Shown here: one piece after another, positions 2,999 to 6,770 of the stretch | Numbering within the stretch: the first letter of the stretch is position 1 | How the letters are laid out: each line of letters opens with the position of its first letter | The notes under the pieces: model-generated | What the model saw: only the letters and a program-made list of their open reading frames with translations | Told to the model about the DNA's origin: nothing | The model's database searches: none | Position numbers and translations under genes: made by a program | Sequence record: OQ873415.1 | Direction: 5' to 3' (one strand) | From: Escherichia phage PECP20 | DNA: 64,000 bases

Positions 2999-4312
2999 TC
3001 AAATAAAATGGACGTCAAAACGACCACGAGTTGTGCCGACATACAATAGCTGTTTAGCTAATTCTGAATCGGCATAATGGATACACGGTGTATAAACAAA
3101 GGCCGTGTCAACAGACATACCCTGAGCCTTATGGAAGGTTGATACAGGTAGCGCCTTCACCTTAGTGAACATGCGTTTAGCATCCCAGAATTTACTCCAT
3201 GGAGCTTTACCACCTTTATTCCAGAATTTGTATGTTTCTGCGGTCTTAGCCAAAAACAAATTGAATTTATAAAGCTCTTCTTCGGAAGAAATAACCTTTA
3301 TATCCTCGCGGACGTATTCTTCATCATCCCCATATGTTTCTACTGTAAGATTCCAGTATCGTATCATATATTCGCCTGAAACACCACGTGCTTTAACGAA
3401 TGTAGACGTTTCTACAGCATCTCGAATACGAACGAATTGCCCGTTATTGAAAAGCATTTCGGTCATATTTTTGCCATCTAGCTTATACGTCTTGGTAAAC
3501 GGCTCTTGTAGAACAATGACTTCGTCTTTAATAAATGGCTTTTCTGTTTCAAGAAGTTTTCGGCGAATAATTGAATTTAACTTGTCCACCGACTTATTTG
3601 TGAATGCCATCATTCGATTTTCGAAAAGGTCTTCAGGAGTTTTAACGACATTAAAATAGTTCATCATATACGATTTAAGGTCTGTATATCCATGAACACC
3701 GTGCCCATCAACTACTTTATCATAAATCCATTTGCCATTACGAATATCAGTCGCAACATCAATAATTGGTGCATTGCTACGTTTAACTTCTGTAAGGTTG
3801 CATTGCACGAAGTCTTTGTGAGTGAAGAAAGGACTTAGATACGCAGTGGATTCGCCTGGGTCTACCGGACGAATCTGGCATCGGTCACCAATTCCAATTA
3901 CTGTGCACCATTTAGGGATACTAGCTAACATTATTTTAAACAGAGAACGGTCACACATTGATGCTTCATCAAATAACAGTACACGACACAAGGCTAAGTC
4001 GGGAACCTTTTTCTGTTCAAATAATACGTTTTCTTCGTATGTAGTTGGGTTGATTTTAAGAATGCTATGAATAGTCGATGCTTCTTGACCCGCAAGTTTG
4101 CTTAGAACCTTTTTAGCAGCATGTGTAGGGGCTGCTAAAATAATACCTGATTCTCCGGCAGAAATAAGGGCTTCAACGATGAATCTAGTAAGGGTTGTTT
4201 TACCTGTACCAGCAGGCCCGTTAATAGTTACGTGATGTTTCTTTTCTTTAATAGCTTTCATAACAACGTTGAAGGCGTTTTTCTGGCCTTCGGTCAAATC
4301 ATCAAATGTCAT
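2999..4312 (-). CDS. dda: Dda DNA helicase (SF1B)
   Basis: 437 aa; near-colinear with T4 Dda as recalled (MTFDDLTEGQKNAFN..., Walker A GPAGTGKTT). Confidence 0.95.
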   Translation of the reverse strand: MTFDDLTEGQKNAFNVVMKAIKEKKHHVTINGPAGTGKTTLTRFIVEALISAGESGIILAAPTHAAKKVLSKLAGQEASTIHSILKINPTTYEENVLFEQKKVPDLALCRVLLFDEASMCDRSLFKIMLASIPKWCTVIGIGDRCQIRPVDPGESTAYLSPFFTHKDFVQCNLTEVKRSNAPIIDVATDIRNGKWIYDKVVDGHGVHGYTDLKSYMMNYFNVVKTPEDLFENRMMAFTNKSVDKLNSIIRRKLLETEKPFIKDEVIVLQEPFTKTYKLDGKNMTEMLFNNGQFVRIRDAVETSTFVKARGVSGEYMIRYWNLTVETYGDDEEYVREDIKVISSEEELYKFNLFLAKTAETYKFWNKGGKAPWSKFWDAKRMFTKVKALPVSTFHKAQGMSVDTAFVYTPCIHYADSELAKQLLYVGTTRGRFDVHFI

Positions 4313-4620
4313 CGTAAAGTCCCTGCAATTGGAATACTAACAATACGGCCAGTATCTAGAATTCGTTGATACAATCTTTGCGTCTCCGCATCTAGTTTAA
4401 TGTGTTTCATTTCAAGCTTATTAAACCAGAACTTACGCGGAGTTTCGACCATTCTTAGAACTCCCATTTTTAAATCTGTTTTATACTGTGTTTTCAAAGT
4501 ATCGAAAACTTTATCTGCAATATCCTTTCTAAAAAATACTGCAGGACGATGTTCATCAAGTGGAACTGGGACAGTAAATCCTTCCATATCTCGATAAACT
4601 ATTGCATATACATAAACCAT
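4309..4620 (-). CDS. hypothetical protein (dda.1 position, 103 aa)
   Basis: ORF overlapping dda start by 4 nt. Confidence 0.6.
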   Translation of the reverse strand: MVYVYAIVYRDMEGFTVPVPLDEHRPAVFFRKDIADKVFDTLKTQYKTDLKMGVLRMVETPRKFWFNKLEMKHIKLDAETQRLYQRILDTGRIVSIPIAGTLR

Positions 4621-4622
4621 AA

Positions 4623-5369
4623 TTAACCTTTAATCAGTTGGAATAATGATGCGCTAAGTGGTAGGCCACGTTTCAATTTTAATTTACCAATGAAACCAAT
4701 CTTTTCAAAACGTTGCAGACCTTGGATAACTTTATCATATGTATCGAAAAGCGATTCAGCGTCAGTTAATTTAGTTTTAGTTTTCCAGTCAGAGCCTTTA
4801 AGAAGAACGTTGAGTTTAGTAAGTTCATGGCCTTCTGCTTGATGCGAGCCATTAATGCGTGCTTTCAAAGCAACAATTCTAAGTTTAGATTCGTTAGATA
4901 AAGGTTGATTTTTCATCATGTTCGTCATATGCTTAACACGATTTTCACGTTTTGCTCGGATTTTTAAAATAGTATCATAAACCTTTTTGATTTGGGCCCA
5001 TTTCTTCTCGTCGAGATTAAGTTTCTCTACTTTACGGGCAGAAGGATTAGCGATACGCCTTGCAATGGCATCACGTTTCTCGATAAGTTCTTCTAATGTT
5101 AAATCGGAACGAGCCGTGTTATATTTTTTCTTAACTGGGATAACATTACCTTTAATGTAGCCGATATCGTTATCAAAACGTTCTAAGGATAATTTCTCAC
5201 CTTCAACAGAGTTATTGAAAGATTCACCTGAGTAAGCGCAGACCTTTTGATCAAGAATGTTTTTAAGGTAATTAAAGTCTAAGTTAAAATCCTTAGAGCG
5301 TCTCTTCGCAGAAGCTCTGGTGTGGTCAAGACGACGATTGATTTTGTTAATTTTATTATTTGATAACAT
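4623..5369 (-). CDS. hypothetical basic protein in the srd position; N-terminal HNH-like motif
   Basis: 248 aa; between dda.1 and the mod genes as T4 srd is; contains CAYSG...ERFDNDIGYIKGNV resembling HNH endonuclease motifs. Confidence 0.5.
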   Translation of the reverse strand: MLSNNKINKINRRLDHTRASAKRRSKDFNLDFNYLKNILDQKVCAYSGESFNNSVEGEKLSLERFDNDIGYIKGNVIPVKKKYNTARSDLTLEELIEKRDAIARRIANPSARKVEKLNLDEKKWAQIKKVYDTILKIRAKRENRVKHMTNMMKNQPLSNESKLRIVALKARINGSHQAEGHELTKLNVLLKGSDWKTKTKLTDAESLFDTYDKVIQGLQRFEKIGFIGKLKLKRGLPLSASLFQLIKG

Positions 5370-5522
5370 AATATTTTCCTCTGTCTTACGGACGTTAAGG
5401 TCATTTAGCTGATAAGCTTATAATATCATGCCCTCAGGTAGTGTACACTCTTTTTTCGTAAAATGCTTTAATTTTTTATGTGTTATAATGGTTCTGAGTT
5501 CCATCCGGTTATTCCAATCCAG

Positions 5523-6131
5523 TCAGTAACCGACAATAGACAGATTCCAGATTGTATAATTTCCATCTTGAATAATAGAATCTACACGCAGTGTAGTCCC
5601 TATAGGGAGCATAAATTCACATTCGTCAGATATAAGTCTAGCATTAGACCGTCTTGTCGCTTCAGGGAAAGCTCCATTGAACTCACAAGATGGCGCAGCC
5701 AGAATCATGTTAAGCATATGTTCACGGAAGTTGAAAGCAAATGGTGCATCTTTGATGCAGAACATATTAAATGTTCCGTAAAAATTATACGAAGCAAAGT
5801 TACGTGCTACACCGAACACTGGACTAAAGCTCATTACTCTGTCAAATTTAATAATACTACCAATGCCTTTATCATCGAGTGTGGCCATAGTTTTCTTAGA
5901 GATTCCACGATACATTGTCTCAGGAACAGAAGACGTCCAATTTCTACGAACAATTGCACTTAAATCTTGTTGGATGCTATCAGGCTTGTTTTCCATACAC
6001 TGCCATAGTACACTTTGTTCAATGTCGCTGAATTGACTATCAATTTCGTACTGCAATTCATCTTGATATTCAGGGCATTGAGCACGACGAACCATTTCTT
6101 CAATTTCACACTCGTTATACGGCATAAACAT
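5523..6131 (-). CDS. modA: ADP-ribosyltransferase, ModA/ModB family
   Basis: 202 aa; R-S-E type motifs (YRG, SFS, ECEF); synteny; modA versus modB assignment is by position only. Confidence 0.6.
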   Translation of the reverse strand: MFMPYNECEIEEMVRRAQCPEYQDELQYEIDSQFSDIEQSVLWQCMENKPDSIQQDLSAIVRRNWTSSVPETMYRGISKKTMATLDDKGIGSIIKFDRVMSFSPVFGVARNFASYNFYGTFNMFCIKDAPFAFNFREHMLNMILAAPSCEFNGAFPEATRRSNARLISDECEFMLPIGTTLRVDSIIQDGNYTIWNLSIVGY

Positions 6132-6188: not shown

Positions 6189-6770
6189 CTAAAAATTCAA
6201 CATTTTCAAATGAATGATTTTGTATAACCGAGATAAAGGGTCATATTCTAAGTCTTCAATTTCTACAATCTCAAATCTAGAGATACCTGAGACCATGTAT
6301 TCTTGTTCAGATTCAATCATATCTAGGACGTCAACACGTTTTTCTTCCATAACATGCTTAGGGTTCTTTCCGGCGAGTACAATGTTAACCATGTTTTGGT
6401 AGTAATCGAAAATGAACGGAGCATTCCTGAGACTAAGAATAGTGTACGTTTGATATTCCCAACTCCCAGAGAACTGTCTGGCCGTACCAAAGTCTGTTGT
6501 AAACGATGTTACTCGTCCAGGAGACCAATGGCATCCTACAGATAACAATGAAAGATGTTCTACTTCTTCTGGAGTTACACCACGGTAGAGTTCTACTGGT
6601 ACTGTAGAAGTCATATGCTTACGAACAAGACGGTCTAATTCATAGTGGAAATCTGGGTCTTCCTTATAATCAGTGCAAGCCCAGAGAATGTTTTGTTCTT
6701 GTTTAGTGAATTTATCATCAATTAGTGCTGCGAGATATTCGCGTTCTTGAAGTTCAGATTGACATGTCAT
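6189..6770 (-). CDS. modB: ADP-ribosyltransferase, ModA/ModB family
   Basis: 193 aa paralog of the previous ORF (YRG, TSFT, EQEY). Confidence 0.6.
   Translation of the reverse strand: MTCQSELQEREYLAALIDDKFTKQEQNILWACTDYKEDPDFHYELDRLVRKHMTSTVPVELYRGVTPEEVEHLSLLSVGCHWSPGRVTSFTTDFGTARQFSGSWEYQTYTILSLRNAPFIFDYYQNMVNIVLAGKNPKHVMEEKRVDVLDMIESEQEYMVSGISRFEIVEIEDLEYDPLSRLYKIIHLKMLNF

Follow-up and report, generated by a model that had tools for sequence, protein, structure and literature searches.

The window, which is the whole 64,000-nucleotide stretch of Escherichia phage PECP20 DNA that was analysed (OQ873415.1), carries on its minus strand the gene order dda, dda.1, srd, modA and modB, an arrangement that it has in common with phage T4. 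The srd open reading frame is preceded by a ribosome-binding site and, further upstream, by a promoter-like site that is consistent with an early promoter. This site is weak evidence, because the regional count does not exceed the shuffled expectation; the same was found for the counts of promoter and terminator sites in the scan around srd as a whole. The ModA-like and ModB-like genes are adjacent paralogs with a 57-nt gap between them, whereas the modB and modA genes of T4 overlap. The general features of the locus and of the Srd protein are shown in Table 1.

Table 1 Features of the srd locus of phage PECP20 and residues of Srd aligned with PacI
Feature	Position (nt)	Strand	Basis or remark
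dda (Dda-like helicase)	2999-4312	minus	gene order dda/dda.1/srd/modA/modB
dda.1	4309-4620	minus	gene order; adjoins srd
srd open reading frame	4623..5369	minus	ORF list; ATG at 5369-5367, stop included, 248 aa
Ribosome-binding site GAGG	5378-5381	minus	sequence; 8 nt 5' of the srd ATG
Promoter-like site TGTACA-16-TATTAT, extended TG	5447..5420	minus	consensus scan; ~50 nt 5' of the srd start
modA-like ADP-ribosyltransferase	5523-6131	minus	phrog_832 match
modB-like ADP-ribosyltransferase	6189-6770	minus	phrog_832 match
Predicted PacI-type His-Me finger (HNH) domain, residues ~10-107	5049..5342	minus	predicted structure, profiles
CAYSG, residues 44-48, remnant of the first CxxCG zinc-knuckle turn	5226..5240	minus	alignments to PacI (C63-G-Y-C66-G)
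Cys44	5238-5240	minus	
ERFDNDIGYIKGNV, residues 63-76	5142-5183	minus	
Predicted beta-beta-alpha core, E63-R87 (ERFDNDIGYIKGNVIPVKKKYNTAR)	5109..5183	minus	alignments to PacI, structure model, conservation
Long antiparallel alpha-helical hairpin, residues 121-153 and 159-191	4797..5009	minus	
C-terminal tail, residues 226-248 (KLKLKRGLPLSASLFQLIKG)	4626..4694	minus	conserved in 22 orthologs
Srd E63 = PacI D92			metal-ligand position
Srd R64 = PacI R93			usual His position
Srd D66 = PacI D95			
Srd G70-Y71 = PacI G99-Y100			loop Tyr
Srd N75 = PacI N104			structural Asn
Srd N84 = PacI N113			metal-ligand position
Srd R87 = PacI K116			

Identity and annotation of the srd product

The product of the srd reading frame is a true, full-length ortholog of T4 Srd. 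It is 69 % identical to T4 Srd over 247 of 248 amino acids (E = 3e-125), matches phrog_1400 (“Srd anti-sigma factor”) over residues 3-248 (E = 6e-100), and shows 100 % identity to the protein annotated as Srd in Escherichia phage CAU_ECP01. Since identity, the phrog_1400 match and gene order all agree, the protein that the preliminary description had placed in the srd position is indeed Srd and shares more with it than the position. The PECP20 and T4 proteins have the same length and identical residues at all motif positions, the 31 % divergence lying mostly in the helical hairpin. The PECP20 protein is very basic (pI 10.1) and contains one Cys. A family-HMM scan of the window found no srd paralog elsewhere.

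Srd orthologs and relatives (H29, H85, H92 and H105) carry several different labels (hypothetical protein, anti-termination protein, anti-sigma factor, decoy of sigma70 and HNH endonuclease), the last of these being attached to an Srd ortholog once, in a Klebsiella phage. Most database records would make Srd an anti-sigma factor or a decoy of sigma-70 or sigma-S, for which the historical name and the annotations propagated from it are the only arguments. No sigma-factor or anti-sigma Pfam family was matched by Srd, even at E values up to 10, and the experimentally reported partner is RNase E (PMC13232886, PMC4980113). The anti-sigma reading was rejected, as sequence and structure searches gave no supporting similarity to sigma-70 regions or to anti-sigma folds, and it is regarded as very improbable. 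Srd itself is already a known protein; the new part is the assignment of its domain to the HNH/PacI type, which was not found in the literature searched, where nothing relevant tied Srd to HNH, to His-Me fingers or to PacI.

The N-terminal domain and its relation to PacI

The structure of full-length Srd was predicted with 22 aligned orthologs as input (mean pLDDT 87), and the N-terminal 112 residues were predicted separately (mean pLDDT 80). Both predicted models contain helices at residues 4-23 and 32-39, strands at 60-64 and 76-80, and helices at 81-87 and 92-107, the two strands and the helix 81-87 forming a beta-beta-alpha unit that is followed by helix 92-107. In Foldseek, the top ranks were taken by the Geobacter Gme HNH nicking enzyme and PacI, with a probability of 1.00 and a TM score of 0.57 to PacI. 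Further matches of the domain model were DraIII, McrA, several Cas9 HNH domains, CAD, TagI and Hpy99I, all of which are HNH/His-Me finger nucleases. Secondary PHROGs matches over residues ~9-106 were to endonuclease (5.6e-19), HNH endonuclease (3.6e-15), decoy of host sigma70 (6.5e-13) and endonuclease VII (1.4e-11) families. The predicted beta-beta-alpha-metal fold, shared with Gme HNH (4h9d), Cas9 HNH, McrA and DraIII, supports the N-terminal domain of Srd as a genuine HNH (His-Me finger) relative, and PacI (PDB 3ldy, 3m7k) is its best match both in structure and in sequence profile.

The link to PacI requires a broad family profile or structure prediction, and identity between Srd and PacI is only 16-18 %. 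A PDB sequence search gave no match with Srd alone or with a 16-sequence Srd-only profile, and hhalign of the narrow Srd-only profile against PacI aligned just a 15-residue fragment at 4.9 % probability. The broad profile was made from 76 diverse domain copies. These came from an exhaustive search with an HMM of the N-terminal region, in which 7,862 cluster representatives reached E<=0.001 and 441 reached E<=1e-10. When the 76-copy profile was searched against 177,635 PDB sequences, PacI was the best match (E = 3.8e-6), followed by Gme HNH (0.014) and, lower, by two Cas9 HNH regions. An independent local run with a larger alignment gave PacI at E = 4.4e-6, and hhalign of the family against PacI reached 94.8 % probability over 91 columns. 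Three relatives (P0128, P0157 and P0164) keep a complete CxxC...CxxC site (CxxCG...CCxxCN) and bridge Srd and PacI.

Many relatives contain 2-4 tandem copies of the domain. One of them (P0049; 852 aa, four copies) is a protein of the dinoflagellate Polarella glacialis, and the domain is therefore not restricted to phages.

Scans of Srd against Pfam and NCBIfam returned no HNH family, even at E values up to 10, and a PADLOC scan returned neither an HNH match nor any other meaningful one. No stretch of Srd falls within a Pfam family. Among 136 full-length relatives scanned against Pfam at E<=0.01, none (0/136) matched an HNH catalytic-domain family; a single relative gave a weak match to the HNH_repeat accessory family (E = 0.001), and there was no shared partner domain, coiled-coil noise being all that was returned. 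The PacI-type domain is thus without a Pfam model, and the canonical HNH Pfam models fail to detect Srd. The PacI group was described as group 20 of the His-Me fingers and as one of three then-new groups with no Pfam family (PMC5714182). The preliminary description had held that a strong full-length alignment to T4 Srd together with the lack of an HNH profile hit would speak against an HNH relationship; this combination does occur with Pfam and NCBIfam, but it is a false negative because no Pfam model covers the PacI-type clade.

Active-site residues and the zinc knuckle

The HNH-like motif that had been noted in this reading frame, consisting of CAYSG and ERFDNDIGYIKGNV, is present in Srd as described. 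When all six reading frames of the window were translated, the extended pattern [DE]R.[DN]...GY...N........N..[KR] had one match, where composition predicts 1.4e-5, and PacI fits the same pattern at residue 92. A chance likeness of a short motif to HNH would agree with the missing matches to curated profiles (Pfam, NCBIfam), but not with this count or with the concordance of fold and profile evidence. It was rejected on the motif statistics and on the structure, profile and hhalign matches to PacI, and its probability is considered negligible.

The mapping of Srd residues to PacI (Table 1) was identical in three alignments, including the 76-copy profile search and hhalign. PacI shares with Srd the core D/E-R...D...G-Y...N........N..K/R, with Arg in place of His and a loop Tyr, and also the helix ahead of the CxxxG turn. 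Canonical HNH nucleases have the central Asn (GNV) and the helix Asn at equivalent places, but their general base is a His (D-H dyad) and as a rule they carry a CxxC...CxxC zinc site, and Srd has neither. At the end of strand 1, where the general-base His would stand, Srd has R64, and Arg occupies this position in 174 of 176 domain copies from relatives; no conserved His was found anywhere in the domain, by composition and in the 22 orthologs. By alignment to PacI, the structural Asn (N75) and the helix metal-binding Asn (N84) of His-Me fingers are both present, as are the Arg-for-His exchange and the loop Tyr (R64, Y71) of the PacI clade. The Asp/Asn pair of metal ligands is likewise represented, with N84 for N113 and, as a conservative change from D92, E63; this position is Glu and not Asp in all Srd orthologs.

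PacI is an active restriction enzyme without the canonical His, for which a loop Tyr substitutes (PMC5714182, PMC4081073, PMC3384342), and it binds a single metal ion via one Asp and one Asn (PMC4081073). Y100 is probably the catalytic Tyr, as judged from the sequence, because it is the sole Tyr between D92 and N104 of PacI, the presumed loop. On this mapping Srd retains the full PacI-type catalytic set, with Asp to Glu as a conservative change. The preliminary description had stated that the usual metal-binding His was replaced; a His is replaced, by R64, but it is the general base of the D-H dyad and not a metal ligand, and the metal positions of PacI (Asp and Asn; PMC4081073) are kept in Srd as E63 and N84. 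As active PacI also lacks the His and has a substitute Tyr, the missing His is a trait of the clade and not a sign of decay. Of the proposed degenerate HNH domain, the relationship to HNH holds (Foldseek 1.00; PacI E = 3.8e-6; hhalign 94.8 %), but the degeneracy does not, the PacI set being kept. A non-catalytic role in nucleic acid binding is nevertheless possible, on grounds other than the missing His.

E63, R64, N67, G70, Y71, G74, N75, N84 and R87 are invariant in the 22 Srd orthologs, which extend down to 38 % identity. A wider sample took in the 150 best-scoring relatives, with 176 copies of the domain; among these, C44 was found in 176 copies, Asp or Glu at position 63 in 175, R64 in 174, G70 in 171, Y71 in 173 (with His in the other three), N75 in 176 and N84 in 173. 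The pocket positions rank as the most conserved in the Srd protein, a pattern unlike that of a decaying active site, and the near-constant Asp or Glu at position 63 is the pattern expected for a needed carboxylate.

In three copies, namely both copies of P0161 and one other, the loop Tyr is a His (NNNTGHVKGNV), which gives the impression of a general base that arose anew at this site.

What Srd has actually lost is the Cys4 zinc knuckle, of which only C44 is left. C44 corresponds to the PacI zinc ligand C63, whereas S47, K80 and Y83 stand in place of the ligands C66, C109 and C112. Position 47 is Ser or Thr in 158 and Cys in 6 of the 176 domain copies. Each PacI subunit carries two Cys4 zinc sites, and Srd, with its one Cys, has none. 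In the predicted model a long helix takes the place of the N-terminal CxxC...CxxC of PacI, and the N-terminal helices would pack at the expected location of the zinc sites. Cys44 itself is invariant (176/176), although the other three zinc ligands are gone in most family members.

The loss of three of the four zinc ligands and the Glu in place of Asp at the metal-ligand position would both suit a catalytically dead relic, in which the HNH fold is only a scaffold or binding surface and Srd is purely a protein-protein activator of RNase E. In the literature, too, Srd figures as an activator that binds RNase E (PMC13232886, PMC7430671), and inactive derivatives of the His-Me finger exist in the Smad MH1 domain and the Enpp nuclease-like domain, which are precedents for HNH folds reused for binding (PMC5714182). 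These two domains have lost the His and any substitute Tyr, as have the inactive His-Me groups in general (PMC5714182), whereas Srd keeps the Tyr together with all other PacI active-site positions. Against a relic there are further the conservation of the pocket, which is the highest in the protein and holds across thousands of relatives, the restriction of position 63 to Asp or Glu (175/176), and the failure, for the PacI clade, of the argument that a domain without His is degenerate. A dead relic is given an even chance.

Helical regions and proposed mode of action

PacI is a homodimeric DNA restriction enzyme of 142 aa, whereas Srd carries a helical C-terminal extension of 140 residues and has RNase E as its reported partner. 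The hairpin in this extension (residues 121-191) is very basic and poorly conserved in sequence, and it gave generic coiled-coil matches only. In the C-terminal tail, K231, G235 and P237 are invariant in the 22 orthologs (to 38 % identity), and conservation reaches at least 90 % at K229, L236, L238, A240, L245 and G248. The tail is a candidate partner-binding peptide and may contact RNase E.

According to PMC13232886, PMC4980113 and PMC7430671, which credit the finding to Qi et al. 2015, the early protein Srd of T4 binds to RNase E in its N-terminal, catalytic half and accelerates the decay of host mRNA. Very few other proteins are known that stimulate RNase E via its catalytic half. A functional analogue of Srd has been proposed in RapZ (PMC7430671), an E. 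coli adaptor that likewise binds to this catalytic half and stimulates RNase E cleavage by way of the N-terminal domain. RapZ differs in having an unrelated fold and specificity for one small RNA, and the likeness to Srd is functional only, by description.

The PECP20 protein is a T4 Srd ortholog composed of a PacI-type HNH domain, a hairpin and a tail, in which the pocket likely engages nucleic acid and the rest of the protein likely docks on RNase E. The HNH-derived module, with its intact PacI-type pocket, would engage the phosphate backbone of the nucleic acid, the helical region and tail would dock Srd on RNase E, and the two together would bring or present RNA to RNase E. Conservation of the pocket indicates that it is in use. 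That the pocket binds and does nothing else is rather probable, and that it is catalytically active as a metal-dependent nicking nuclease is a more doubtful proposition.

HNH nucleases characteristically yield 5'-phosphate ends, and such ends are preferred by RNase E. Srd may be pictured as an autonomous nuclease, a Tyr-dependent HNH nickase or RNase whose 5'-phosphate cuts feed RNase E and so explain the apparent stimulation. The complete PacI-type catalytic set under strong constraint and the homology to an active enzyme would agree with such an activity, as would the HNH endonuclease label that several records give to relatives and to one Srd ortholog. The picture fits less well with the absence of the zinc knuckle and with the position of PacI as a distant relative and a DNA enzyme. 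Qi et al. are reported to have found that Srd-driven decay of the lpp and ompA mRNAs is lost in RNase E-defective cells, and a dependence on RNase E of this kind would argue against Srd as a free-standing general RNase. Srd expressed alone impairs the growth of E. coli, and this toxicity on heterologous expression (PMC6070864) is a point in favour of a nuclease. Taken together, the autonomous nuclease is entertained tentatively, at clearly less than an even chance.

The assignment to the PacI type leads to the specific point mutants Y71F, E63A, R64A and N84A, and the placement of Srd on the PacI branch with its catalytic set intact turns a vague idea of an activator into a testable hypothesis on the way in which it acts on RNase E. 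It also corrects a widespread annotation, most databases still naming Srd an anti-sigma factor, and it brings out a very large phage protein family (7,862 cluster representatives, E<=0.001) that is invisible to Pfam and inconsistently annotated. It is conceivable, if on the unlikely side, that Srd is a Tyr-dependent, zinc-less HNH nuclease and that thousands of phage proteins with the ER/DR-GY-N-N residues may be so too. If this were true, the T4 host-mRNA shut-off factor would make a first metal-dependent cut that leaves 5'-phosphate ends or, alternatively, would sit on RNase E and hold the RNA in a pocket of the nuclease type, and a new zinc-free branch of PacI-like enzymes would take part in RNA decay.
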